From NCBI RefSeq assembly GCF_046105845.1, contig NZ_CP151004.1: DNA of 64,000 nt; one strand, written 5' to 3'. The translations under genes were made by a program, and so were the position numbers. This stretch comes from Escherichia coli. Lineage in GTDB: Bacteria; Pseudomonadota; Gammaproteobacteria; Enterobacterales; Enterobacteriaceae. Below the pieces are notes generated by a model that was not told where the DNA came from, did no database searches, and worked only from the letters and a program-made list of their open reading frames with translations. Positions 22,644 through 63,717 of this stretch are shown here, piece by piece; position 1 is the stretch's first letter; every line of letters starts with the position of its first letter.

Positions 22644-22691
22644 TTTCTTATTCCTCTTTAAACCTGTCTGAACCGTTATCAACCGCGCAAT

Positions 22692-22729
22692 AAAAAAGCC
22701 CCCGGAAGGTGATCTTCCGGGGGCTTTCT
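22692..22729 (-). terminator. his operon attenuator terminator
   Basis: agcccccggaag...cttccgggggct hairpin followed by U-run on the minus strand, between hisL and hisG. Confidence 0.8.
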
Positions 22730-22788
22730 CATGCGTTCATGCACCACTGGAAGATCTGAATGTCTTCCAGCACACATCGCCTGAAAGA

Positions 22789-22839
22789 CTAGTCAGGATG
22801 ATGGTGATGATGGTGGTGTTTAAATTGAACGCGTGTCAT
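22789..22839 (-). CDS. hisL: his operon leader peptide
   Basis: Minus-strand translation MTRVQFKHHHHHHHPD* with seven consecutive His codons. Confidence 0.92.
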   Translation of the reverse strand: MTRVQFKHHHHHHHPD

Positions 22840-25065: not shown

Positions 25066-25331
25066 AGAAAAATTATTATGACAAGCCTCTCATTCTCTTG
25101 TCATTTCCCCCCCATTTAGGCACAATGCGCCGCTGTCAAAAAATGACTAAAAACCGACGTTTAATTAGCGTCGGTTATTTTTTGCTTCAAACCAATCATT
25201 CATACCAAGAGGCCGGGCTTCGTACCGGATAGATATTTACTAAAAATCGACAGTTGTTGTCGCTGAGGAATCCAAAAAAATGGGGCAATTTTTTGCTTAC
25301 GCGACGGTTATCACCGTAAAGGAGAATGACC

Positions 25332-49316: not shown

Positions 49317-49518
49317 CGAAATAATCTGGCAGTTATAAACGTTTATTTTTTTACTGTTTGTGATCTGCTTTCCGAACTTATTAAAAAGTCTCCCGCTTCA
49401 CGGAGGCTTTTGTTATTGTCCTTTGTGCTTCTCGTCAGTAAATCATCAGGGATGATGTGAAGATTAAATGTAAAACAATTGTTTTGCTATAACAATAAAT
49501 TAACTGGGAGGTTTTATC

Positions 49519-50433
49519 ATGATTTCTGCGGCGACACTTAATTCAGAACTCATTAATAAAATCGCGCAGGATTTTGCGCAGGCGACCAGCCTTGCGGTTG
49601 TCGTGGTCAATATTCACGGCGATGAAATTTCCGAGCTGTTTAACTTCACTCCATTTTGTCAGATGATGCGGCAACACCCTCAGCTAAGCACTCGATGTCG
49701 CATGAGCGATCGTTGTGGGGGCTTGGAAGCCTCTAAATCCGATCAGCCTTGTATTTATCGCTGTCATGCCGGATTAACCGATTTCTCTATTCCACTGGTA
49801 ATCGCCGGGCATTTAGTCGGTTTTGTATTGTGCGGGCAAGTTCGTCTGCGTAATGATGATGTCGATTTGGTCGATATTCTGAATGTCGATGATTGCTGGC
49901 AGGCAGATCCCGAATTACTTAATGAATTCCGCAAAGTTCCTGAGATGGATTACTCAAGAGTTATGGCCTCTGCTGATTTGTTGAAGTTGATTGTGGAAAA
50001 TTGCCTCAAAAAACAACTCAATTTTGTGGTTATTAAAGAGAACAAATCTCAGTCAGATTCGGTGCGCCAGACTCGTGCGCCTAATCCCCACGACAATAAA
50101 ATGAAAAAAGCTTTACGCTATATTGATGCGCATTTATCAGACGATTTGCGTCTGGAAGATGTCGCCTCACACGTTTATCTAAGCCCTTATTATTTCAGTA
50201 AGTTATTTAAGAAATACCATGGAATCGGGTTTAATGCGTGGGTAAACCAACAACGGATGGCCAGCGCTCGTGAGTTACTGTGCCATAGTGACTGGAGCAT
50301 CGCCAGCATTGCGCGTAATTTAGGTTTTTCACAAACAAGTTATTTTTGCAAAGTTTTCCGTCAGACTTATCAGGTTACGCCGCAGGTGTATCGACAGCAA
50401 GTGAGTGATAATGCGGCGATGGAAACGGTATAG
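49519..50433 (+). CDS. pocR: AraC-family activator of pdu/cob regulon
   Basis: 304 aa; C-terminal AraC HTH; matches Salmonella PocR as I recall it. Confidence 0.94.
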   Translation: MISAATLNSELINKIAQDFAQATSLAVVVVNIHGDEISELFNFTPFCQMMRQHPQLSTRCRMSDRCGGLEASKSDQPCIYRCHAGLTDFSIPLVIAGHLVGFVLCGQVRLRNDDVDLVDILNVDDCWQADPELLNEFRKVPEMDYSRVMASADLLKLIVENCLKKQLNFVVIKENKSQSDSVRQTRAPNPHDNKMKKALRYIDAHLSDDLRLEDVASHVYLSPYYFSKLFKKYHGIGFNAWVNQQRMASARELLCHSDWSIASIARNLGFSQTSYFCKVFRQTYQVTPQVYRQQVSDNAAMETV

Positions 50434-50544
50434 AGTAAATGCCCCAAAAAAAGAGGACGGTTTAAATAAACTCTGCAATGAATAATTAACGTTATTTACC
50501 TGTTATGGGAAAAGTGAAATCAGCTCATAACATACGCTGACAGG

Positions 50545-50760
50545 TGTGGCACATTTGTGCCTGGGAAGAGGGTGAAAATCCCTCGCAGCCCCCGCTGCTG
50601 TAATGCTGACAAACCCGAAAATGCCACTGATCGCGAGATTGGGAAGGTCGGGAGAGGATGACGCTAAGCCAGAAGACCAGCCAGTCAGTCAATACCAACA
50701 ACTTCGGTGGGAAGTGGGTTGCCCGGAAGCGTCCGGTAGAGTACCGGCGCGTCTTTATAC
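50545..50760 (+). promoter_or_regulatory. cobalamin (B12) riboswitch-like leader
   Basis: Contains GGTGAAAATCCC, GCAGCCCCCGCTGCTGTAATG, B12-box GCCACTG, GGGAAGG and AAGCCAGAAGACC elements in the order typical of cobalamin riboswitches. Confidence 0.6.
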
Positions 50761-50917
50761 CCCTACCACCCTGAAAGGATCAGGGTATGGCGGCATCATT
50801 TAGTTCTTTCATCGCAGTGCCGACAGGCACCAGGGCTGCACTTAAGGTGTGGCAATCTTGTTTCATGGCTCATCAACCAGACCGCCATTACAGGAAACTA
50901 AGTGGAGGGCGAGAGGC

Positions 50918-51355
50918 ATGAAAACGATAAAACCCGAATCGATAGCTCTTTTTTGCCTCTTATCTGGAGATGTGGATCTGGCGAAATATCTGGCTGAAAT
51001 ATTGCCAATAACCTGTTTTGTTGGTGAGGACTGGCAGCAAGATTTCCAGCCTCTTGATGGTGGGTCTGTGCAATCGTTATCAGATGTGTATGGCGATTAT
51101 TCAGTGCTGCTATTGATAGCAGCTGAAAGCGAGATATCCGTACCAGAATGGCTCGCTCATTCTGAAGGAACGACGGTAATTGTGATTGCAGAACACAATG
51201 CCCGTTTGCTGACTGGTCCGGCTGGTGGGGCTGTAGCATTGATCCATTATCTGAATGAAATCTGTCATTCCAGAGAAACCGCTGTCAATGACGCATTTTG
51301 TCGTACGTTAACACGAGGAAGTCTGGCTATTCCGCAATGCCATCTTCTTTCGTAA
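50918..51355 (+). CDS. hypothetical protein downstream of the B12 leader (possible cbi remnant or novel ORF)
   Basis: ORF 50849..51355; internal ATG at 50918 preceded by GGAGGG; no family recognised by eye. Confidence 0.3.
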   Translation: MKTIKPESIALFCLLSGDVDLAKYLAEILPITCFVGEDWQQDFQPLDGGSVQSLSDVYGDYSVLLLIAAESEISVPEWLAHSEGTTVIVIAEHNARLLTGPAGGAVALIHYLNEICHSRETAVNDAFCRTLTRGSLAIPQCHLLS

Positions 51356-51488
51356 TGGATTGAGAATGCTGGATTTTTAATTATATTACGCGCAGTATTA
51401 ATCGCGTAAATGTTTTGCGGTCAGCAACGGTGGGGGATCCATTGTTCTGTTCAATGAATACCATCATACAATTGAATCAGGAGTCGGT

Positions 51489-52034
51489 ATGATGATTTTG
51501 GTGACAGGTGGAGCACGGAGCGGGAAGAGTCGCCATGCAGAGGCGCTTATTGGGGACTCTTCACAGGTTCTGTATATCGCCACCTCGCAAATCCTTGATG
51601 ATGAGATGGCTGCACGGATAGAACATCATCGGAAAGGCCGCCCGGCGCACTGGCGCACGGTGGAGCGTTGGCAACATCTTGATGAATTAATTCATGCAGA
51701 CATTAACCCGCATGAAGCTGTGTTGCTGGAATGCGTTACCACAATGGTGACTAATCTGTTGTTTGATTATGGCGGAGATAAAGACCCTGATGAATGGGAT
51801 TATCAGGCGATGGAACAGGCAATTAATGCTGAGATTCAGTCGTTGATTGCTGCCTGCCAACGTTGCCCCGCGAAGATTGTATTAGTGACTAACGAAGTGG
51901 GAATGGGGATTGTGCCGGAGAGTCGTCTGGCACGACATTTTCGTGATATTGCCGGGCGGGTAAATCAGCAACTGGCCGCTGCGGCAAATGAAGTGTGGCT
52001 GGTGGTTTCGGGTATTGGAGTAAAAATCAAATGA
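51489..52034 (+). CDS. cobU: adenosylcobinamide kinase / adenosylcobinamide-phosphate guanylyltransferase
   Basis: 181 aa; P-loop GGARSGKS. Confidence 0.96.
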
Positions 52035-52774
52035 GTAAATTATTTTGGGCGATGCTCTCTTTTATTACGCGTCTGCCTGTGCCGCGTCGCTGGTCCCAGG
52101 GACTGGATTTCGAGCATTATTCTCGCGGTATTATTACTTTTCCTTTAATTGGTTTATTGCTTGGCGCGATTAGCGGGCTGGTCTTCATGGCGTTGCAGGC
52201 ATGGTTTGGCGTACCACTGGCGGCACTGTTTAGCGTGCTGGTGCTGGCGCTGATGACCGGGGGATTCCACCTGGACGGCCTCGCCGATACCTGTGATGGC
52301 GTATTTTCTGCACGTAGCCGCGATCGCATGTTGGAAATCATGCGTGATAGTCGTTTAGGCACCCACGGCGGTCTGGCATTGATTTTTGTTGTACTGGCAA
52401 AGATTCTGGTGTTAAGCGAATTGGCTCTGCGTGGCGAACCGATCCTTGCATCGCTGGCGGCAGCATGCGCGGTTAGCCGCGGGACTGCCGCATTATTGAT
52501 GTATCGTCATCGTTATGCCCGGGAAGAAGGGCTTGGCAATGTGTTCATTGGCAAAATTGATGGGCGACAAACCTGCGTCACACTCGGCTTAGCCGCTATT
52601 TTTGCTGCCGTATTATTGCCGGGTATGCATGGTGTGGCTGCTATGGTGGTGACGATGGTGGCGATTTTCATCCTCGGTCAGCTTCTCAAACGTACGCTGG
52701 GCGGGCAAACCGGCGATACGCTGGGAGCAGCCATAGAGCTTGGTGAACTGGTCTTCCTGCTGGCACTGCTATAA
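52031..52774 (+). CDS. cobS: cobalamin 5'-phosphate synthase
   Basis: 247 aa membrane protein from MSKLFWAML; ATGA overlap with cobU stop. Confidence 0.95.
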
Positions 52775-52785
52775 AGAGACGTGAC

Positions 52786-53865
52786 ATGCAAACACTTGCC
52801 AATTTACTGAATACGATCCCTGCCATCGATCCTGCCACTATGTCGCGTGCACAACGGCATATTGACGGGTTACTCAAACCTGTTGGTAGCCTGGGAAGGC
52901 TGGAGGCGCTTGGCGTACAACTGGCGGGAATGCCGGGGTTGAATGGCATACCGCATGTGGGCAAAAAAGCGGTACTGGTTATGTGTGCCGATCACGGCGT
53001 CTGGGAGGAAGGGGTCGCTATTTCCCCAAAAGAAGTCACAGCCATTCAGGCTGAAAATATGACCCGCGGAACAACCGGCGTGTGTGTGCTGGCAGCACAA
53101 GCGGGCGCTAACGTCCACGTAATTGATGTTGGTATTGATACTGCTGAGCCTATCCCCGGGCTTATCAACATGCGTGTCGCACGAGGTAGCGGCAATATTG
53201 CTTCAGCTCCGGCAATGAGTCGCCGTCAGGCTGAAACGTTGCTTTTGGACGTCATATGCTATACGCGGGAGCTGGCAAAAAACGGTGTCACGCTGTTTGG
53301 TGTAGGTGAACTGGGGATGGCAAACACGACACCGGCAGCGGCGATAGTGAGCACAATCACTGGCCTGGATCCTGAAGAAGTGGTTGGGATTGGCGCAAAC
53401 CTGCCGACAGATAAACTGGCTAATAAAATTGATGTTGTGCGACGGGCGATTACGTTGAATCAACCAAATCCGCAGGATGGCGTTGATGTCCTGGCAAAAG
53501 TGGGTGGATTTGATTTGGTCGGAATGGCTGGCGTGATGTTAGGCGCTGCGTCCTGCGGTTTACCGGTGTTGCTGGATGGATTTCTTTCTTATGCTGCCGC
53601 GCTCGCAGCCTGCCAGATGTCTCCTGCAATCAAACCGTATCTCATTCCTTCTCACCTGTCGGCAGAAAAAGGGGCGCGTATAGCGCTGTCGCATTTGGGG
53701 CTGGAGCCTTATCTCAATATGGATATGCGTTTAGGTGAGGGAAGTGGCGCAGCTCTGGCGATGCCCATCATCGAAGCTGCCTGTGCGATATACAACAGCA
53801 TGGGCGAACTTGCTGCCAGTAATATTGTTCTACCGGGGAATACGACTTCTGATTTGAACAGTTAA
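52786..53865 (+). CDS. cobT: nicotinate-nucleotide:dimethylbenzimidazole phosphoribosyltransferase
   Basis: 359 aa; matches CobT. Confidence 0.96.
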
Positions 53866-54853: not shown

Positions 54854-55014
54854 CATTCAAAACGTCTGGTTTGTCGGTCTGTGTAAGCATTCCGTCATGC
54901 AGAACAGGTTGTTTCGAATCATACAAATGATAATTTTCTTCTCATATGCGCATCTCTTATGAGCATAAACGTTATACTCTTCTGATTTATACATGTTTGC
55001 GGATGACATGATCA

Positions 55015-55992
55015 ATGGAAAAGAGAATGACGAAACAGAATAAAAACAGCCGTTGGCAGGGTTACGATCCTCGTTACATATACTCGCTCGTGGTCAGACG
55101 CTATTTTGCGGATATGAAAACCAAGATTGAGATTGCTGAGGAGCTTGGCGTTTCCCGCTTTAAAGTTGCCAGATTGATCGATGAGGCGATCGAACAGGAT
55201 TACGTGAGGTTTATCTTCCCTAAGCAGCAAGCGATGGATGAAGAAATCGCCAATAATCTACGGAAAAAATTTCATCTGGAAGATGCAATTGTTCTTTCAG
55301 TTGCTGAATCATGGACGACGCAAGAAGAACTCAATCACAAATTGGGTGAAGTCACCGCTGAATATCTTACGCAATCTCTTCATGAAGGTATGAAAGTGGG
55401 GATCGCCTGGGGACGTGTATTATCAAGTACGGTCAGTAAGTTGAGCAAGCTGCCTCCTTTAGACGTTGTGCAGTTATCTGGCGTACATCCGGGGATTGAG
55501 TTTAGTCAAGGGCCAATAGATCTTATTCATAAGATCGCTGCCATTTCGCAGGGAAAAGCGCACCCAATGTACGTGCCGATGTGGGTCGATGACGAAGAGC
55601 TTGCTGCCAGACTGGCAGGTGATCCTGCGGTATTAGATACACAGCAATATTACTCACAGTTGGATGTGGTTATCACCGGGATAGGTGACTGGAAATCAGG
55701 TTCTTCAAGCTTGTGTAAAATATTTCCGGATACCTGGTGCGAAGCTTTGTTTCAACAAGATATCGCTGCGGATGTGTGTATCTCGTTGGTCAGCAGGGAA
55801 GGGAAGATTCTTCATAGTCCTATTGAACGTCTGGGATTTGGCATTTCGACGGATCAACTACAAAAAGCCAAAAAAGTGATTGGTGTCGCCGGAGGGGAAG
55901 AGAAATATGAAGGCATTCTTGCTTCGCTGAAATCTGGACTTTTGAATGTCTTAATTACTGATTTTGATACGGCCATTAAACTTCTGGATTAA
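55015..55992 (+). CDS. SorC-family transcriptional regulator (sugar-binding domain)
   Basis: 325 aa; N-terminal HTH (IAEELGVSRFKVARLI) and C-terminal sugar-binding domain. Confidence 0.8.
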   Translation: MEKRMTKQNKNSRWQGYDPRYIYSLVVRRYFADMKTKIEIAEELGVSRFKVARLIDEAIEQDYVRFIFPKQQAMDEEIANNLRKKFHLEDAIVLSVAESWTTQEELNHKLGEVTAEYLTQSLHEGMKVGIAWGRVLSSTVSKLSKLPPLDVVQLSGVHPGIEFSQGPIDLIHKIAAISQGKAHPMYVPMWVDDEELAARLAGDPAVLDTQQYYSQLDVVITGIGDWKSGSSSLCKIFPDTWCEALFQQDIAADVCISLVSREGKILHSPIERLGFGISTDQLQKAKKVIGVAGGEEKYEGILASLKSGLLNVLITDFDTAIKLLD

Positions 55993-56043
55993 TAGCCGTA
56001 TCTGTGAAGAAAGGGCAGTACCGCTGATTCTGCCCTTTTAATT

Positions 56044-56502
56044 TCAGGATGCTGCGAGCGTATCCTCTACATATTTAGCCACGCGCGTTGCAGGTAAATT
56101 GCGGCAAGTCTCAACAAAGGCGTTATCCTGAAACAGTGTGAATAAACGACGCAATATCGACATATGTTGATCACTGGTGGCAAATGCCAGGTTAAACATA
56201 ATGCTACAATCAACTGTTAAAGCAGCATCTTCCATCTGTCCGAAAGTGACATCATTGGAGAAACGAACAATACTGATGCTGTTTACATTTACCAGCGTGT
56301 AATCGGCATGGGGAATGGCGATACCCTGACCGTTTGCCATCATTAATCCTGTCGGATAGCTTTTTTCACGTTCCAGACAGGCGTCAATGTATTCTGCAGT
56401 GATGTAGCCTTTTTCCAATAATTGCGTACCAGCAAAGGTGATCGCCGTTTGATAGTCGTTGATGCTGTTATCAACATCATTTACCAGAATTTCAAATTTC
56501 AT
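56044..56502 (-). CDS. PTS EIIA component (type 2)
   Basis: 152 aa; conserved phosphorylatable His in GIAIPHAD. Confidence 0.85.
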   Translation of the reverse strand: MKFEILVNDVDNSINDYQTAITFAGTQLLEKGYITAEYIDACLEREKSYPTGLMMANGQGIAIPHADYTLVNVNSISIVRFSNDVTFGQMEDAALTVDCSIMFNLAFATSDQHMSILRRLFTLFQDNAFVETCRNLPATRVAKYVEDTLAAS

Positions 56503-56512
56503 TGCACACCTG

Positions 56513-56797
56513 TTATTTCAGTATCTCTTCTTTAACTGCAGCGAAAATCTCATCTTCGCCCAGACCAGTCAGTAATCCAGCGCCAACGATGACACGAGTA
56601 GTAATGGCCGGGTTATCGAGTTTGGTCGATGAAACCACCAGGTCATAGCTGTTGAAGGTATCGCTGGTGCATGCCATTAACGAAGATTTATCGACTTGCG
56701 CTTCAATTTTCTCTTCTTTCAGTAAGTCCTGCAGTACAGAGACCATGATGGAAGATGAGGCAATTCCGTTTCCGCAAACTACTAAGATTTTTTTCAT
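56513..56797 (-). CDS. PTS EIIB component (galactitol-type)
   Basis: 94 aa; active-site Cys in KILVVCGNGIASS. Confidence 0.85.
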   Translation of the reverse strand: MKKILVVCGNGIASSSIMVSVLQDLLKEEKIEAQVDKSSLMACTSDTFNSYDLVVSSTKLDNPAITTRVIVGAGLLTGLGEDEIFAAVKEEILK

Positions 56798-56820
56798 TTG
56801 ATTATTCCTCTGTAAAAGAT

Positions 56821-58191
56821 TTAAAGCGCTTTTTCTAAATCCGTTTCAATCTGGCGACGTGATTTTTGTTTAATTAAGTATCCAATAGATAACAAAAGGA
56901 TACCTGCCATCACATAGCCAATGATTCCAACATGGCTCAGGGCGGCAAACAGACCAGTAAATGGATTCGCAGACGGGTTAAGCGAAGAGTACATCACGCT
57001 GGCATCCGGGTTTGTACCAAACTTCTGGAAGACTTCGTTGGTAGCCGGTGCCATCCACGATGCAATATACAGACCACCACCGAACAAAATGATCGAGGTC
57101 ACCCAGGTGCGAATAATGTTGCCATTGAAAACAGGCACCATGCAGGCAATGAAAAACACAAACTGAGAGAGGTCACCCAGTGGCATAACGCGGTTGCCGG
57201 GCAAGATCACTGCGAGGATCACAATCACCGGGATCAGTAATAATGCCGGGGCGATAACTGACGGATGACCCACAATCAGGGCAGTGTCCATTCCAACAGT
57301 GATTTGACGATCCGGGAAACGTTTGACCAGTTTTTTGCGTGCCACGTTGGAAAGCGGAACAAGCCCTTCCATCATGATAGAGGTCATACGTGGCAACAGA
57401 AGCATGACTGCAGCCAGATACATCCCTAACTGTAGGCTGGCAATTATGGTGTGGTAGGGGGATTTCCAGCCATAACCACAAAAGCCCAACAAAATACCAA
57501 TAATAAAACCAACCATAGTTGGATCGCCCAGAATGCCAAACCGTTTTTGAATAGTTTCGGCGGTCACATTCAGATTACGGAAGCCTGGGATGCGATCATA
57601 AATCCAGTTGAATGGATAAGCGAAAAGTAAGTAGGTATTGGCAACCGGGTGAGAGATCGCAACACCTTTTGGCAGGTTAAAGAATTTTTCGTTATTTTTA
57701 GCACCGAGATCGGCAGCGATCAGCGCCCAGACATGGAATAGCGCGGCGGTCAATGCGCCATACAGGAAGCTACCAGAATAGACGCCAACAATTGCCCCCA
57801 TTGACGCATTTTGATGAAGGTTGAAAACATCAACGTTAACACAGTCAGTCAGGCGGGCGACCAGCATTGCAATATTTACCGCAACACAGAGGGGAATAAT
57901 GATAGCGCCCATGCTGGAGCCAAATCCCATCACTGCAGTCGCTGCGCCACCAACATCGATGGCACTGAGCGAGGAACCTGTTGCTTCTGCTAATCCGGTG
58001 ACTGCCGGTTGCATTTTTTCCAGCATCAGTTTGATGGTCATGGTTAGCGCAATGAAACCAATGCCGACTTTGATGGCGGAGGAGATACATTCTGAAAGAG
58101 GACGGCCAAGTATCTTCATCAGTACCAGAAAGATGACCGGGATAAATATAAAATTTCCCAGATCGTTTATAAATTGCGTGATCAGTTCCAT
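56821..58191 (-). CDS. PTS EIIC permease (galactitol family)
   Basis: 456 aa polytopic membrane protein. Confidence 0.85.
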   Translation of the reverse strand: MELITQFINDLGNFIFIPVIFLVLMKILGRPLSECISSAIKVGIGFIALTMTIKLMLEKMQPAVTGLAEATGSSLSAIDVGGAATAVMGFGSSMGAIIIPLCVAVNIAMLVARLTDCVNVDVFNLHQNASMGAIVGVYSGSFLYGALTAALFHVWALIAADLGAKNNEKFFNLPKGVAISHPVANTYLLFAYPFNWIYDRIPGFRNLNVTAETIQKRFGILGDPTMVGFIIGILLGFCGYGWKSPYHTIIASLQLGMYLAAVMLLLPRMTSIMMEGLVPLSNVARKKLVKRFPDRQITVGMDTALIVGHPSVIAPALLLIPVIVILAVILPGNRVMPLGDLSQFVFFIACMVPVFNGNIIRTWVTSIILFGGGLYIASWMAPATNEVFQKFGTNPDASVMYSSLNPSANPFTGLFAALSHVGIIGYVMAGILLLSIGYLIKQKSRRQIETDLEKAL

Positions 58192-58194
58192 ACA

Positions 58195-58731
58195 TTAACC
58201 CTCAGATTTTTCATCATCTGGTCGGAAACCCATATTCCAGCGTACATCAGCGGGCTTAACCAGCAATGCATTATCGTTACGTTCAGCTTCTAGTAAGTTC
58301 TTTTTAGAATTTTCTCTGGCGGTGGTGAAGTCGAATGGGTTATCCAACCATGCATCGACAATCATTTTGCTGTATTCGAGATCGTTGACCCGGCAACCCA
58401 GTCCAATAACTTGTGCGTTATTGCTGAGTCGCGCCCGCTTTGCGGAGTAGGGGTTAGTAACCGCAACGGCTCTTATGCCCCAGTGTTTGTTGATCTGACA
58501 AGTAAAGCCAATGCCAGTCCCACAAATGTAAATTCCCAGACGGCACTCATCGCGTTGAATAATGCCTGCCATTTCGTCGGCTAGACGCGCGAAGTTATTG
58601 ACACCTTGTTCCTTACATGTGACGGGATCGTACACGATCTCCATGTTTTTCTCTTCTATGAGGTATTTTTTTATCTCCTCTTTACGTGCAAAACCTACAT
58701 CATCGCTTGCGATAGCAATCTTCGTTTTCAT
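58195..58731 (-). CDS. RpiB/LacAB-family sugar-phosphate isomerase
   Basis: 178 aa; CGTGIGFTCQINKHWGIRAV and KMIVDAWL closely parallel RpiB motifs. Confidence 0.85.
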   Translation of the reverse strand: MKTKIAIASDDVGFARKEEIKKYLIEEKNMEIVYDPVTCKEQGVNNFARLADEMAGIIQRDECRLGIYICGTGIGFTCQINKHWGIRAVAVTNPYSAKRARLSNNAQVIGLGCRVNDLEYSKMIVDAWLDNPFDFTTARENSKKNLLEAERNDNALLVKPADVRWNMGFRPDDEKSEG

Positions 58732-59079
58732 TTCATTTTGCCTGTCGTTAAGTAACTAAAGCCAAGTATGCTGTTGGTAAATATTGGTTGTCAATTGAGA
58801 TCTAAATCACAAAATTTATAACTGATTGATTTTTATGATAAAAAAAACCAATAAAAACAAATAAAAAATAAATTAAGCCAATTGAGACAAATTGGGATTG
58901 TACAGTGGCGTTGTAATGAATAATAAAAACTCATTTATTATCAATCGGATATATGGTTTTTGAACTATTGTCTTTATTGGGTTTATTTGTACTTTCCACT
59001 GTTAGTGTTTGTTTTTGTTTGCATCATCTGTGCTATGCTTGGCGTTTTCTAAGATGGGTAATAGATTTCAGGAGGAAGG

Positions 59080-59835
59080 ATGTATCTGGTTGATGAAAGG
59101 CGAAAGTTAATACTTGAAGACTTAATGTCGGCAGGTACGGTCTATGTCAGTGATCTTGCACGAAAGTATGAAGTAACGTATGAGACCATCAGGAAAGATT
59201 TGACCCATCTTGAACAAAAAGGGCTGCTGATCAAAAGCCATGGTGGGGCGACTTTAAAGCAAAGGGCCATAGAGCATCCCTTTCAGGTCAGGGAAAAAGA
59301 AAATAACTCTTATAAGAAGGCGATAGCTCGTAAAGCGCTTGATTTCATTCCGCCTAATAGTTCGATGATTATCGGTACGGGCAGTACCACTTTTGAGCTG
59401 GCTAACCTGTTATGTATGAAGTCTGGGTTTAAAATCTTCACAGATTCGCTCCCCGTTGCCAGTGTGTTGATTGAATCTGACAATCAGGTTTTTCTCTTTG
59501 GCGGCGAACTGCGTAGAAAGAGTTCCTCAGTGTTTGGGGGGTGGGCGGTATCTATGATCAACGATATACATGTTGATCTCTGTTTCATTGGAACCGACGG
59601 TTTTAGTAACATGACTGGTCCATCGACGCCTTCTTCTTCTGATGCGTTTTTGGATCGCACGATAATTTCGCACTCAGACAAAAAATATATCCTCGGTGAT
59701 TACACCAAGTTTGAGCGCAGCAGTTTGTTTAAGATCTGCGACTGGTCGGAGATCACCGCCCTTATTACCAACGATCATGCCGACAAAGAGGGGATTGCCG
59801 AAGTCGCAAAATACACGTCAGTAATAACCTGTTAG
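59080..59835 (+). CDS. DeoR-family transcriptional repressor
   Basis: 251 aa; N-terminal HTH and DeoR C-terminal sensor domain; divergent from the isomerase-PTS operon. Confidence 0.85.
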   Translation: MYLVDERRKLILEDLMSAGTVYVSDLARKYEVTYETIRKDLTHLEQKGLLIKSHGGATLKQRAIEHPFQVREKENNSYKKAIARKALDFIPPNSSMIIGTGSTTFELANLLCMKSGFKIFTDSLPVASVLIESDNQVFLFGGELRRKSSSVFGGWAVSMINDIHVDLCFIGTDGFSNMTGPSTPSSSDAFLDRTIISHSDKKYILGDYTKFERSSLFKICDWSEITALITNDHADKEGIAEVAKYTSVITC

Positions 59836-60172
59836 AACTCACTACGACACGCCTTCTCTCTTCGAATCAGCTTTGCCAAATGTAATCATTTCATAATTAT
59901 CAAGTGAGCATCCATGGCGATGCTTGCTTAGCGCCCTCTATTGAATACATCCTCTACATATTGCCAGTTTCACTTCATTTTTAGCGACGAAATCATTTTT
60001 TGAATCACGATTTGCTCATATGAGCGTAAATAGTGTCGCCATTATGTGATTTTTTGTGATCTGGATTTAATTTCTCAGATCTCGTCATTTGTCCACAGGA
60101 TCGTTGTGCTATAACTGCTCATATGAAGGTTGTTCAATGCTCATGTGAGCATTGGGGGTGAGGGGGAAGGAT

Positions 60173-60616
60173 ATGATATCGATCAGTGTTGCCGATGGTG
60201 CGGGACTACAGAACTACGATGCCGTGCTTGAACATATTTATAACACGCATCGTGAAACGAATACGGTGAAAGAGAGCTGGCTCAATGCTATGCGTAAACG
60301 CGAAGCGGAATATCCGACAGGAATAGAACTGGAAGGTTATTCTATCGCTATACCACACTGTGATAGTGAACATGCGAATCAACCGGCTATTTACATCATC
60401 CGTCTGCCAGACGCAATACCTGTGAACAGGGCTGATGAAGATGGAATATTGTGGGTCAGACTGGTCGTTAATATCATTGTTACGGATCCTGCTGACCAGC
60501 TTCGATTGTTAAAGTCATTATTTAACCATCTCCAAAATGAAGAATTCTACCAAAACTTACTGACACTTCCCGTCGAGGATGCAAAAGCACTTTTTGTATC
60601 CAGGATAATCCAATAG
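60173..60616 (+). CDS. PTS EIIA component (type 2)
   Basis: 147 aa from the ATG preceded by AGGGGGAAGG; His in IAIPHCD; ORF-track TTG start lies 7 codons upstream. Confidence 0.8.
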   Translation: MISISVADGAGLQNYDAVLEHIYNTHRETNTVKESWLNAMRKREAEYPTGIELEGYSIAIPHCDSEHANQPAIYIIRLPDAIPVNRADEDGILWVRLVVNIIVTDPADQLRLLKSLFNHLQNEEFYQNLLTLPVEDAKALFVSRIIQ

Positions 60617-60634
60617 TAAAAACTGGAGTTTATT

Positions 60635-60928
60635 ATGATTAATATTCTTGTTGCTTGTGGTAGCGGTGTCGCTACATCTACGCTTGCTGCTGATGAAGTG
60701 AAGTCAGTATGTGCTGAATATGGTATTACGGCATTTAAAATCAACAAATGCAGTATGGCTGAACTTTCTTCTGAGATGGCTCATGCAGATATTGTACTCA
60801 CAACTAATAATTATAAAGGTGATATTGGGAAACCACATATGAGCGTTGCAGGTTTTGTAACGGGTATTAATGAAGGAGCATTACGCAAGAAATTAGGAGA
60901 GTTATTAACTGAATTAGCAAATAGCTAA
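60635..60928 (+). CDS. PTS EIIB component (galactitol-type)
   Basis: 97 aa; active-site Cys in ILVACGSGVATS. Confidence 0.85.
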   Translation: MINILVACGSGVATSTLAADEVKSVCAEYGITAFKINKCSMAELSSEMAHADIVLTTNNYKGDIGKPHMSVAGFVTGINEGALRKKLGELLTELANS

Positions 60929-60948
60929 ACCTGACAGGAATAATAAAA

Positions 60949-62202
60949 ATGGAAATGTTGAAAAATTTAATGGAAACAATCACCGGAATGGGGGCGACTG
61001 CAATACTGCCGCTGGTGATATTTATTTTAGGTCTGGTGTTCAGAATGAAACCAGGTGCCGCGATCAAGTCGGGCATCACCGTCGGTATTGGTTTTATTGG
61101 TTTAGGTTTAGTTGTTGGTTTATTAAATAGTTCATTACAGCCAGCTATCGAGTATTACTCAAAAGTAGGCAGTGGTTTTACGGTTGCAGATATTGGTTGG
61201 CCAGCAGTCGGTGCGGCTGCATGGGTAGCACCTTTTGCCGCATTAGTGATACCAGTTGGCATCGTACTTAACCTGATTCTGGTGCGCCTGAAATTAACCA
61301 AAACGTTAAATGTTGATATCTGGAACTATATGCATTTTTTAGTTCCGGGCGCTCTGGCATATTTTGTGTTCGACAGTTTTATCATCGGCTTCTCTGTCGC
61401 GGTGGCTTTGAGTATTGCGGCCCTGTTTATTGGCGATTTGATTGCGCCCAGATGGCAAAAATATTATGGACTCGAGGGAACAACCTGTACCACGATGATT
61501 CATATCGGCTGGACTCTACCGTTCGCCTGGGTAGTAAATAAAATCATTGATTACATCCCTGGGTTAAATAAGTTAGATGTTGACTTAAACAGTGTGCAAA
61601 AACGCCTGGGTGTCTTTGGTGAACCTGCAATTATCGGTGTTATCGTTGGCGCATTACTCGGAGTTTTAACGAAACAGGCAATTACCACAATTGTTCCCAT
61701 GGCGATGGGGGTTGCTGGTGTAATGGTATTGTTACCTAAAGTGGTCGGTGTGCTGATGGAAGGTCTTAACCCGATTGGGAAAAGTGCCAAAGAAATCATG
61801 CAAAAACAGATGGGTAAAGATGCTGAATTAAACATCGGTATGGATTGTGCACTGGCGTTGGGGGATCCGGCGACGGTCACCGTGACAGTCATTACCATTC
61901 CTTTAACTATGCTATGTGCTCTGGTATTGCCTGATATTAAGATCTTCCCAATTGGCGTATTGATGTCAATTATTTATATGACCACCATGACCGTAATGGC
62001 GAGCAACGGTAACGTGATTCGTTCGATTATCTCGACCTTGTTATTCTGCGTTGTAGTGATGTATTTAGGCGGTTATGTCGCACCAGGGGCAACGCAATTT
62101 TTAGCTGGAGCCGGTGTAGGCTTGCAAGGACAAGGTACTGATTTTGTATTAACCGGCCCGTGGGAAATTTTAACCTATTGGTTGAGCACCGTATTACATT
62201 GA
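60949..62202 (+). CDS. PTS EIIC permease (galactitol family)
   Basis: 417 aa polytopic membrane protein. Confidence 0.85.
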   Translation: MEMLKNLMETITGMGATAILPLVIFILGLVFRMKPGAAIKSGITVGIGFIGLGLVVGLLNSSLQPAIEYYSKVGSGFTVADIGWPAVGAAAWVAPFAALVIPVGIVLNLILVRLKLTKTLNVDIWNYMHFLVPGALAYFVFDSFIIGFSVAVALSIAALFIGDLIAPRWQKYYGLEGTTCTTMIHIGWTLPFAWVVNKIIDYIPGLNKLDVDLNSVQKRLGVFGEPAIIGVIVGALLGVLTKQAITTIVPMAMGVAGVMVLLPKVVGVLMEGLNPIGKSAKEIMQKQMGKDAELNIGMDCALALGDPATVTVTVITIPLTMLCALVLPDIKIFPIGVLMSIIYMTTMTVMASNGNVIRSIISTLLFCVVVMYLGGYVAPGATQFLAGAGVGLQGQGTDFVLTGPWEILTYWLSTVLH

Positions 62203-62224
62203 TTTAATAATCTGGAGTTTTAAC

Positions 62225-62869
62225 ATGGCAAAAATATTACCTTCTATATTTGGCGCGGATATTTTACGCCTGAAAGATGAAATTCATTTTCTGGAAGAGG
62301 AACAAACCGAAATATTGCACGTTGATTTAATGGATGGCACTTACGTCAGTAATATTGCCTTTGGCCCAAATCAAATTGCAGCAATGAAAAAAGCCAGTTC
62401 GATGATCTTTGACGTGCATATGATGCTGGCAAATCCTGAGCGACATATTGATGATGTAATCAATACCGGGGCGGAGATGATTTCTGTACATTATGAGTCG
62501 ACGCCACATGTGCATTATATTATTCAAAAAATCAAAAAAGCGGGGCGCAAAGCAGGTGTTGTGCTTAATCCTGGGACACCTGAATCTGTCATCGAGTATT
62601 TATTAGATGATATTGATTATATATTGTTAATGACAATTAATCCGGGGCAACTAGGCCAGACATTTATTCATAAAAGCCTGGAGAAAATCCGTAACACCAA
62701 AAAATTGATATCTGGCAGAGATATTCAAATTGAAGTGGATGGTGGCGTTAATCTTGATAATGTGAAACAAGTTAAAGAAGCGGGGGCTGACCTTATTGTT
62801 GTTGGCGGTGCATTATTTAACAAACAGCCTCATGAAAGTTATCAGGCATTAAAAATCGCTGTTCAGTGA
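62225..62869 (+). CDS. ribulose-phosphate 3-epimerase family protein
   Basis: 214 aa TIM-barrel epimerase signature (HVDLMDG, MTINPGQ). Confidence 0.85.
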   Translation: MAKILPSIFGADILRLKDEIHFLEEEQTEILHVDLMDGTYVSNIAFGPNQIAAMKKASSMIFDVHMMLANPERHIDDVINTGAEMISVHYESTPHVHYIIQKIKKAGRKAGVVLNPGTPESVIEYLLDDIDYILLMTINPGQLGQTFIHKSLEKIRNTKKLISGRDIQIEVDGGVNLDNVKQVKEAGADLIVVGGALFNKQPHESYQALKIAVQ

Positions 62870-62964
62870 TCATAATCTAAAAATTTTACATCCAGCTAAG
62901 TGAGGTTTTCGATTTCATATCGGGAGGAAAACCCCAACTAAAAAGTCTTTAATGGAGAAAAGTA

Positions 62965-63717
62965 ATGAGTAATTTTGCAGGTAAAGTGGTTTTAGTTACC
63001 GGAGGTGCTCACGGTATTGGCAAAGGGATAGCTAAACAATTTGCTGATCGTGGTGCACATACTGTTATTGTTGACTATAACGAAGAGAACGGCAAGGCCA
63101 CTGCAGCAGAGTTAACTTTTGGCGATGTTAAATCGCTGTTTGTTAAAACAGATGTCTCCGATCCACAGGCATTAGTGGATGTACGGGAAAAAGTATTTGC
63201 TACCTTTGGTCGTATTGATGTGTTGATATTAAATGCCGGTGTGGCATTTGCCAATAAAGTTAACAATATTTCTTTTGAGGAATGGAATAAGACTATCGCA
63301 ATTAACTTATCGGGATTATTTAATACCGTTAAGGCATTTTATGATGATTTCCTGACAAATAAGGGATCTATTGTTTATATCTCATCGGGATCAGCGCTTT
63401 CGGGGACTGGGGGCGGCGTGAGCTATCCTGCCAGTAAAGCGGGAGGCGAAGGATTGATTCGTGGTCTGGCAAAAGAGTTAGGACCAAAAGGCGTAAATGT
63501 TAATGCGATTGCTCCCCGCTTAATAGACACCGGAGATATGATGCGGGTCAACTATCCAACACAAGCCGATTTAGACGCTGTCCTGGAAAAAATACCCGTC
63601 CGTCGTCTGGGGACTATCGATGATGTGGCTAACCTGGCAATATTTTTGGCAGATAAAGATAACTCTTATATTCAGGGACAAACCATTTTAATGGATGGTG
63701 GCCGGACTATTGCTTAA
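62965..63717 (+). CDS. short-chain dehydrogenase/reductase (SDR)
   Basis: 250 aa; TGGAHGIGK NAD-binding motif and YxxxK catalytic motif (YPASK). Confidence 0.88.
   Translation: MSNFAGKVVLVTGGAHGIGKGIAKQFADRGAHTVIVDYNEENGKATAAELTFGDVKSLFVKTDVSDPQALVDVREKVFATFGRIDVLILNAGVAFANKVNNISFEEWNKTIAINLSGLFNTVKAFYDDFLTNKGSIVYISSGSALSGTGGGVSYPASKAGGEGLIRGLAKELGPKGVNVNAIAPRLIDTGDMMRVNYPTQADLDAVLEKIPVRRLGTIDDVANLAIFLADKDNSYIQGQTILMDGGRTIA

Follow-up and report, generated by a model that had tools for sequence, protein, structure and literature searches.

A 64,000-nt stretch of Escherichia coli DNA (RefSeq contig NZ_CP151004.1, assembly GCF_046105845.1; hereafter 'the window') carries, between pocR and cobU, what by sequence and predicted structure is the still intact cobalamin (B12) riboswitch of the ancestral enterobacterial cob operon, in an operon stripped of its cbi genes. 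Two short open reading frames (ORFs) follow the riboswitch: a leader ORF, which opens at the old cbiA start codon, and an ORF descended from the N-terminal part of CbiG, here called CbiG′. It is probable, though well short of certain, that selection has kept riboswitch, leader ORF and CbiG′ as a unit in which B12 would repress both ORFs. The original prediction for this stretch had proposed a cobalamin-riboswitch leader with no cbi genes behind it, and had set two explanations side by side: that an internal deletion removed the cbi genes and left the sensor RNA, or that the switch was kept to regulate the salvage genes.

The proposed leader, with its B12 box downstream of pocR, is present. The aptamer matches Rfam family RF00174 over the full length of the model (Table 1), and begins 15 nt earlier than the start first assigned to the leader (50540). 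Bit scores were 109.4 in the window, 105.6–112.9 in six other Escherichia lineages, 106.9 in Salmonella and 112.5 in Citrobacter, and across seven lineages the aptamer showed zero indels. Within the B12 box, CCACTG was invariant in all seven, and the G that precedes it is A in five. Of the cells of the Rfam structure compared across relatives 86.3% pair, against 30–48% in slid controls, and two pairs showed compensatory change (UA to AU and UA to CG); covariation within Escherichia, with too little variation among the sequences, did not exceed the shuffle control.

Directly ahead of the old cbiA ATG (50787), the expression platform ends in a ribosome-binding-site (RBS) hairpin, ACCCTGA-AAGGA-TCAGGGT (50768–50786), whose loop holds the Shine–Dalgarno sequence of that start. 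The stem is the same in Salmonella and Citrobacter, the hairpin is present in the minimum-free-energy fold, and platform identity is 91–95% within Escherichia and 93% to E. fergusonii. At the other end a second conserved hairpin lies immediately 5′ of the aptamer; its stem, in which GTTATGGG (50502–50509) pairs with CTCATAAC (50524–50531), reads GTTATGAG/CTCATAAC in E. fergusonii and GTTATGGG/CCCATAAC in Citrobacter, differences that are compensatory. This hairpin forms the 5′ edge of the conserved RNA block, extending it to about 50496, and the conservation profile climbs from 74% to at least 90% at about 50494. Taken together, these features indicate that the adenosylcobalamin riboswitch of the old cob operon is still intact.

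The history of the locus was read from a set of pocR loci, fetched as one genome per species. Complete pduF-to-ldtA stretches of Citrobacter (L084) and Salmonella (L086) served as reference operons, and the Escherichia loci were those of E. whittamii (L005), two further species representatives (L006 and L007), Escherichia sp. (L091), E. marmotae (L090), E. albertii (L088) and E. fergusonii (L093–L097). The Salmonella-type operon has the order pocR-leader-cbiABCDETFGHJKLMNQOP-cobUST (PMC5282855). The window shares with both reference loci the order pduF-pocR-leader-cobU-cobS-cobT-ldtA on one strand, and its PocR is 89% identical in amino acid sequence to that of Salmonella. Alignment supports orthology of the leader: about 50477–50795 of the window matches the Salmonella and Citrobacter pocR–cbiA leader at 78–85% nucleotide identity, up to and including the cbiA ATG. 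On the 3′ side of the cbiA start, homology skips ~6 kb and resumes in the final ~15–35 nt of cbiF, continuing into the beginning of cbiG, and window 51335–51500 matches the terminal ~150 nt of cbiP as well as its junction with cobU (blastn: Citrobacter 62%, E = 3e-8; Salmonella 66%, E = 4e-9).

The claim that no cbi genes lie behind the switch was also upheld, in that tblastn with all 17 Salmonella Cbi proteins returned CbiG residues 1–119 as the sole trace between riboswitch and cobU, and no intact cbi gene; blastn and nhmmer added remnants of the cbiA start and of the 3′ ends of cbiF and cbiP. No match was obtained with an nhmmer profile built from cbiA 5′ ends, and cbiA beyond codon 3 is uncertain, pairwise alignments hinting at about codon 19. 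Where the original prediction saw one unrecognised ORF and then cobUST, both the ORF and cobUST are there, but the ORF can be identified as the N-terminal portion of CbiG and a second ORF (50787–50921) stands before it. Assignment of the former (50918–51355) as a cbiP or cbiA remnant was rejected: its homology is to the CbiG N-terminus, and cbiP survives as ~150 nt 3′ of the ORF.

Read in this way, the locus is the ancestral enterobacterial cob operon minus its cbi genes, one deletion running from cbiA to cbiF and another from mid-cbiG to cbiP. The Escherichia ancestor clearly had the whole pdu–cob cluster, at the same chromosomal site as in Salmonella and Citrobacter, and internal deletions then took out the cbi genes. 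Because the layout is common to all Escherichia species examined, both deletions are older than the Escherichia radiation. The idea of an internal deletion that left the sensor RNA behind is therefore right in substance, except that there were two deletions rather than one, together with an intergenic loss of ~220 nt, and that the event is ancient.

That intergenic loss falls between pocR and the conserved leader, the distance from pocR stop to aptamer being 91 nt in E. coli and about 310–325 nt in Salmonella and Citrobacter. In Salmonella the missing upstream part holds a promoter-like sequence (TTGTCA-16 nt-TAAAAT) ~475 nt 5′ of cbiA, a position that agrees with the ~468-nt length of the S. 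Typhimurium cob leader. Neither a sigma-70-like promoter nor a + strand terminator-like site was found between pocR stop and aptamer in the window, so read-through from pocR would be the most likely source of the leader transcript.

Because the riboswitch block (50494–50793) is conserved without indels while its flanks diverge, the RNA from riboswitch through platform to start codon is, on this comparative evidence, under purifying selection long after cbi loss. The block is 89–98% identical among the six non-fergusonii lineages and 88% identical between E. fergusonii and the window. The corresponding values are ~74% (mean pairwise) and 40% for the upstream spacer, 73–82% and 44% for the leader ORF, 81–86% and 66% for the cbiG′ part of the second ORF and 72–76% and 49% for its tail; the cbiP remnant, at 78–91% among the six, was not aligned for E. 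fergusonii. Sequence downstream of the block is 71–88% identical among Escherichia lineages. In the four lineages that were found through PocR, and are thus unbiased as to the ORF, 11% of columns were variable in the block compared with 31% downstream (Fisher p = 6e-12). Indels were distributed likewise: none in the block, one (3 nt, in frame) in the 569 nt of ORFs, three in the 60-nt spacer and 2–4 in the 133-nt cbiP remnant.

The ORFs too bear signs of having been kept. Both are open in every lineage, with CbiG′ 144–156 codons in length. When the observed substitutions were placed at random on the consensus sequence, ~5.5 nonsense mutations were expected in the ORFs of the PocR-found lineages and ~8 in those of all six lineages, against none seen in either set (P ~0.002 and ~2e-4, respectively). 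The ratio of nonsynonymous to synonymous change (ω) in CbiG′ was ~0.43 among non-fergusonii lineages (pairwise 0.30–0.64) and 0.31–0.42 against E. fergusonii at synonymous divergence (dS) of 1.1–1.5; for comparison, ω was 0.04 in pocR, 0.03 in cobS, 0.14 in cobU and 0.04 in the true CbiG N-domain between Salmonella and Citrobacter. These figures suggest that codon-level constraint on CbiG′ is weak but real.

A different kind of constraint is seen in the leader ORF. It begins ATGGCGGCA, encoding Met-Ala-Ala as in CbiA, and its first 9 nt are those of Salmonella and Citrobacter cbiA; its TGA (50919–50921) overlaps the ATG of CbiG′ (50918–50920) as ATGA. At the 73–82% nucleotide identity given above, it is open, of equal length and without indels in six lineages. 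The E. fergusonii leader ORF has 49 codons, no sequence similarity to the others at 44% nucleotide identity, and a 20-nt overlap with the next start. Because the stop of this ORF is homologous to the native cbiF stop, and Salmonella cbiF and cbiG likewise overlap by 20 nt, the first deletion may originally have been an in-frame cbiA′–′cbiF fusion. As judged across the genus, the leader peptide is free to change, and the conserved features of the ORF are its start codon, its reading frame and the overlap with the start that follows. In one allele (P0001, from a Logan assembly, 188 aa) a 1-nt change joins leader ORF and CbiG′ in a single frame from the old cbiA ATG. Two further candidate features were discarded: resemblance of the leader-ORF end (..RHYRK..) to the CbiF C-terminus (..HEYRKA), the nucleotide positions of which are not homologous, and a terminator-like hairpin at 50835–50853, judged to be chance (2 found, 1.0 expected).

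Within the cbiF remnant, ahead of the CbiG′ ORF, lies a Shine–Dalgarno sequence, GGAGG (50904–50908). Its duplex with the anti-Shine–Dalgarno has a calculated energy of −9.5 to −10 kcal/mol in Escherichia and −7.3 kcal/mol in E. albertii, compared with a mean of −4.4 kcal/mol (range −2.8 to −6.1) at the same upstream site in ~30 distinct sequences from cbi+ species, where cbiF is coding-constrained. By this comparison the strong Shine–Dalgarno of CbiG′ is a derived feature.

CbiG′ consists of the N-terminal ~140 residues of CbiG, much diverged, with a short new tail; protein alignment puts the end of CbiG homology at about CbiG residue 140. Residues 1–112 share 43% identity with residues 1–119 of Salmonella CbiG, where the neighbouring proteins share 79–89%. 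The CbiG profile NF004463 recognises the ORF at E = 6.5e-19, over profile positions 1–125 of 351, with 68.3 bits against a cut-off of 546. Salmonella and Citrobacter CbiG carry the domains CbiG_N, CbiG_mid and CbiG_C, of which CbiG′ represents one, and of the 69 columns that are near-invariant (≥95%) among the N-domains of 45 enterobacterial CbiG proteins it keeps between 27 and 31. Still recognisable are its first 35 residues and the LLxGxxGGA...YL segment, the GATGIAVRV core being replaced and shortened. With one domain of three, 68 bits where 546 are needed, no Pfam match and near-invariant positions lost, CbiG′ is by all sequence measures not a cobalt-precorrin-5A hydrolase and is dead as an enzyme. 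Two alleles (P0004 and P0007) show in-frame loss of GGA from the GPAGGA motif, the most CbiG-like part, together with a shorter C-terminus. A PADLOC scan of the leader ORF and CbiG′ returned nothing. Our best guess is an accessory or regulatory role related to B12 or corrinoids and tied to the Pdu system.

The genes cobUST, which serve cobinamide salvage and nucleotide-loop assembly, are less constant in their attachment to the switch. The proposal that the switch was kept for these salvage genes is borne out insofar as it is under purifying selection; it fails in that the switch is intact in E. albertii, where cobU has decayed and cobT is deleted, and in E. fergusonii, with no cobUST at the locus. 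In E. albertii (L088/L089, 6436–7876) cobU is a pseudogene with frameshifts, a 148-nt gap and fragments 61–65% identical, and cobS, at 93% identity, is intact; the lineage has kept pdu but is probably unable to salvage cobinamide. Its unit is nonetheless whole, with an aptamer of 112.8 bits, both ORFs open and ω unchanged. In E. fergusonii the unit is directly followed by ldtA, homology to the window resuming at the cobT/ldtA boundary, and cobUST were absent at the locus, and as regards the locus only, in 5/5 loci read (L093–L097). Here too the unit is intact (112.9-bit aptamer, leader ORF and a 156-aa ORF), and the 156-aa ORF has been recorded on ~177 contigs.

Since the unit is intact in both species, regulation of cobUST cannot be the whole reason for keeping the switch, and cobUST are probably not its main target. 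Over the loci compared, the constant companions of the riboswitch are the leader ORF and the CbiG′ ORF, with cobUST as optional passengers. A promoter-like sequence, TTGAGA-16 nt-TATATT (51360–51387, + strand, 10/12 matches in a promoter scan), lies in the cbiP remnant 100 nt 5′ of cobU, and its −35 hexamer is kept in all lineages but E. albertii; it is a candidate internal promoter, and as such would explain how cobUST work in strains without the riboswitch. As a separate observation, the sequence 3′ of ldtA in E. fergusonii (for example L093, 8472–16471) holds a glycyl-radical-enzyme microcompartment cluster, with a pyruvate formate-lyase (PFL)-like protein, a radical S-adenosylmethionine (SAM) activase, a bacterial microcompartment (BMC) shell protein and PTAC, so that two microcompartment systems flank the E. 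fergusonii unit.

Table 1. Coordinates of features from pocR to cobT in the window, with the evidence for each.
Feature	Coordinates	Strand	Evidence or description
pocR, AraC-type regulator of the pdu/cob regulon	49519–50433	+	NCBIfam NF047788 PocR, 554 bits, cut-off 500
Conserved hairpin directly 5′ of aptamer	50502–50531	+	Sequence read directly
Cobalamin riboswitch aptamer, RF00174	50525–50699	+	cmscan 109.4 bits, gathering score 31.5, E = 1.7e-26, model 1–189, full
B12 box GCCACTG	50623–50629	+	Aligns to consensus gCCACUG
Expression platform	50700–50786	+	Aligns with Salmonella/Citrobacter pocR–cbiA leader through ATG
Leader ORF, 44 codons	50787–50921	+	Opens at ancestral cbiA ATG, right after RBS hairpin
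cbiF 3′ remnant, inside leader ORF	50885–50917	+	blastn/nhmmer homology to cbiF–cbiG junction from about 50885–50905
CbiG′ ORF, 145 aa	50918–51355	+	N-terminal ~140 residues of CbiG, much diverged, with short new tail
cbiP 3′ remnant, spacer between ORF and cobU	51335–51491	+	blastn to Citrobacter/Salmonella cbiP end and cobU start
cobU	51489–52034	+	NCBIfam CobU, 246 bits; 81% identity to Salmonella protein; RefSeq annotation
cobS	52031–52774	+	83% identity to Salmonella protein; RefSeq annotation
cobT	52786–53865	+	79% identity to Salmonella protein; RefSeq annotation

Within E. coli the unit travels with pdu. The riboswitch occurs in 644 of 5426 complete genomes (~12%) and pduC in 642, and the whole stretch 50434–51488 recurs at 97–99% identity in 643, its RefSeq annotation in E. 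coli genomes being 'riboswitch' and 'hypothetical protein'. pdu-negative E. coli have been left with no more than cobUST, the cbiP remnant and the ORF's 3′ part, which are joined to a pduV remnant or interrupted by an insertion sequence (IS) element; nearly all E. coli, pdu-negative strains included, retain at least the 3′ part of the cbiP remnant. Some individual records stand apart. A strain-specific deletion in E. coli Combat13F7 (H47; NZ_CP019245.1, 3510658–3510937) apparently joined a pduO-like gene to a truncated riboswitch. A metagenome-assembled genome labelled Citrobacter sp. HRGM_Genome_0066 (L004) has a pocR 99% identical to that of E. coli and the E. coli-type riboswitch–ORF arrangement at 98%, and a 383-nt contig of Streptomyces cahuitamycinicus (L065) has a pocR sequence 99% identical to E. 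coli; in both cases public assemblies seem to contain E. coli contigs through mis-binning or contamination. Escherichia sp. MOD1-EC7003 (L038, 10001–18932) carries the full leader and cbiA through at least cbiG, its PocR being 84% identical to that of the window, at about Klebsiella distance, and is either misnamed as to genus or a lineage with an undeleted operon.

In Salmonella, bound adenosylcobalamin makes this leader repress translation of cbiA. By analogy with that leader, binding of adenosylcobalamin in the window would stabilise a fold in which the RBS hairpin conceals the ribosome-binding site. Translation of the leader ORF would stop with B12, and by way of the overlapping stop and start codons translation of CbiG′ would drop along with it. 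Where cobUST survive, B12 may lower the read-through share of their expression, although they are probably also driven by a promoter of their own in the cbiP remnant. Because the leader is most likely read through from pocR, the unit would be induced by propanediol as well as repressed by B12. In E. coli, translationally acting riboswitches commonly reduce the amount of mRNA too, by way of Rho (PMC5499598), and a B12 riboswitch of Mycobacterium tuberculosis controls an upstream ORF (uORF) whose translation the downstream gene needs (PMC11260477).

Several observations weigh against the view that selection keeps riboswitch, leader ORF and CbiG′ together as a B12-repressed unit. An ω of 0.3–0.6 represents weak constraint, and a frame kept only for the sake of being translated, as a guard against polarity or for protection of mRNA, would look similar. 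For E. albertii, E. marmotae and E. fergusonii the search for loci used the ORF protein, so broken alleles in these species would escape. CbiG′, having its own strong Shine–Dalgarno, might be translated independently of the switch-controlled start; a predicted hairpin pairs the CbiG′ start with leader-ORF sequence in the E. coli clade, and was not recovered in E. fergusonii. No C-rich, G-poor Rho-loading (Rho utilisation, or rut-like) region was visible in the ORFs. Nor do the protein searches point to a function: a Pfam scan of the CbiG′ ORF gave no match even at E ≤ 10, the sequence matched solved structures only at chance level, and the AlphaFold2 model is of moderate confidence (mean predicted local distance difference test score, pLDDT, 73.6), with only generic Rossmann-like matches at E > 0.01 from a Foldseek search of the PDB, so the model gives no function for CbiG′. 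Finally, 88% of E. coli genomes are without the unit and still keep cobUST, from which it follows that the unit is dispensable without pdu.

A more far-reaching claim, which we put forward only tentatively, is that the CbiG N-domain has been exapted into a new B12-repressed, Escherichia-specific gene tied to Pdu, the switch having been re-targeted from a 20-gene pathway to one product. Were this true, that product would tune propanediol use or corrinoid handling to the external supply of B12 in bacteria that have lost the ability to synthesise it.

Of the competing explanations, one gives the unit a reporting role: CbiG′ or the leader RNA would convey B12 status to Pdu by modulating PocR and pdu induction, or would handle corrinoids for the microcompartment, and a genus unable to make B12 would in this way match its use of propanediol to B12 supply. 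It has in its favour that the unit always lies directly 3′ of pocR, stands in near one-to-one relation with pdu in E. coli (644 vs 642) and persists in species with pdu but without cobUST; moreover, the native promoter-like segment is gone, and hence the leader is probably part of the pocR transcript, as its 3′ part. In Listeria and Enterococcus, B12 riboswitches act on pocR or eut regulators through RNAs. All of this is evidence from context, however; no DNA-binding, corrinoid-binding or other functional motif was found by Pfam, PADLOC or structure searches, and the co-occurrence with pdu may be no more than a result of physical proximity, as the unit is itself truncated by deletions that take out pdu. 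We consider such a role conceivable but unlikely.

Rather doubtful, too, is that the switch has been kept only for B12 feedback on cobUST, with the ORFs forming a translated bridge against polarity or mRNA decay. B12 elements ahead of cobU-, cobS- and cobT-type genes are common in other bacteria, and in E. coli, E. whittamii, E. marmotae and the L006 and L007 lineages cobUST do lie 133 nt downstream on the same strand. The leader ORF has kept its frame and not its sequence, as a relay would, and coupling of translational control to Rho and mRNA levels is documented for E. coli riboswitches (PMC5499598). Yet in E. fergusonii, without cobUST at the locus, and in E. albertii, with cobU dead and cobT deleted, the switch and ORFs are intact at the same ω. 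The promoter-like site in the cbiP remnant, and the pdu-negative E. coli that keep cobUST without the switch, argue in the same direction, as do the lack of rut-like composition and the fact that CbiG′ shows some amino-acid constraint (ω < 1) and conserved motifs.

That the unit is a functionless leftover of a recent deletion, its sensor RNA and ORFs not yet decayed, is highly improbable: there is no doubt that the cbi genes have been lost, and the ORF passes no test of a working CbiG, but the same deletions are found in lineages at dS 0.3–1.5, relic flanks are down to 40–80% identity where the riboswitch block holds 88–98% without indels, both ORFs are open where 5–8 stop codons are expected, E. 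albertii cobU is an example of true decay within that same time, and 12–27% divergence in the relic parts argues against recent horizontal transfer of one allele.

Among neighbouring elements, the small RNA (sRNA) STnc230 (RF02075, 74.8 bits) lies between pduF and pocR (49375–49458, − strand), as it does in Salmonella, Citrobacter and all scanned Escherichia loci. The his operon leader (RF00514, 131.6 bits; 22690–22813, − strand) and sRNA STnc240 (69.3 bits; 25111–25185, + strand) are ordinary for the region. No tRNA genes were found in the window; other E. coli have tRNA-Asn and nac right 3′ of ldtA. In the window the sequence 3′ of ldtA (54854–63717) holds two galactitol-type phosphotransferase system (PTS) clusters, SorC/DeoR-family regulators, an RpiB-like isomerase, a ribulose-phosphate 3-epimerase and a short-chain dehydrogenase/reductase (SDR); this region is probably an island, either inserted or alternative.

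That the element exists was already on record, both riboswitch and ORF being annotated in RefSeq. Descriptions of E. coli usually credit it with a single cobalamin riboswitch, that of btuB. About one in eight complete E. coli genomes, those of propanediol-using strains, carry a second, which appears fully intact. New, as far as we could find, are the occurrence of such a second switch both in pdu-positive E. coli, an eighth of the genomes, and in the other species of the genus compared here, and its retention through the history of the genus after loss of the pathway, paired with a leader ORF of free sequence and a domesticated gene fragment. No description of this locus was found in full-text literature searches, although the Lawrence and Roth papers of 1995 and 1996 on E. 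coli cob genes may mention the K-12 remnant; the riboswitch goes unmentioned in a study of how E. coli ST372 gained and lost pdu (PMC9997745).

The locus bears on how enteric bacteria lost B12 synthesis, and indicates what the loss of a large operon can leave under selection: a sensor, a start codon, a leader frame of no fixed sequence and a gene fragment. It makes testable both the re-targeting of riboswitches and the domestication of pseudogene fragments, as coding sequence or as translated relays. As pdu-positive E. coli matter in gut colonisation, a B12-responsive element beside pocR is also worth knowing.

Set against known systems, the arrangement resembles, in its proposed workings, that of M. 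tuberculosis ppe2, where a B12 riboswitch controls translation of a uORF and downstream expression depends on this translation via termination–reinitiation or stop/start overlap (PMC11260477). The two are unrelated in sequence and belong to different riboswitch classes; the uORF of the window is a fused remnant of two biosynthetic genes, and the dependence of CbiG′ upon it is only inferred. With the E. coli btuB riboswitch, which is thought to act on translation with secondary effects on mRNA (PMC5499598, PMC11162775), the window switch shares its Rfam family and organism, but it differs in locus and target and occurs in only ~12% of complete E. coli, the pdu carriers. btuB itself is present in E. 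coli K-12. From CbiG (NF004463), from whose first ~140 codons the window ORF descends, CbiG′ is set apart by having one of three domains, by loss of 55–60% of near-invariant positions, by ω of ~0.4 rather than 0.04, and by the absence of a cbi pathway around it. The closest relative remains the cob leader of Salmonella enterica, an orthologous RNA in an orthologous place with the same aptamer, RBS hairpin stem, Met-Ala-Ala start and flanks. Compared with the Salmonella cob operon, the window has lost the 17 cbi genes save for fragments of cbiA (start), cbiF (3′ end), cbiG (N-terminal third) and cbiP (3′ end), as well as the ~220-nt pocR–leader segment with its promoter-like site, and the start codon that the riboswitch controls now opens a 44-codon ORF that encodes no enzyme.

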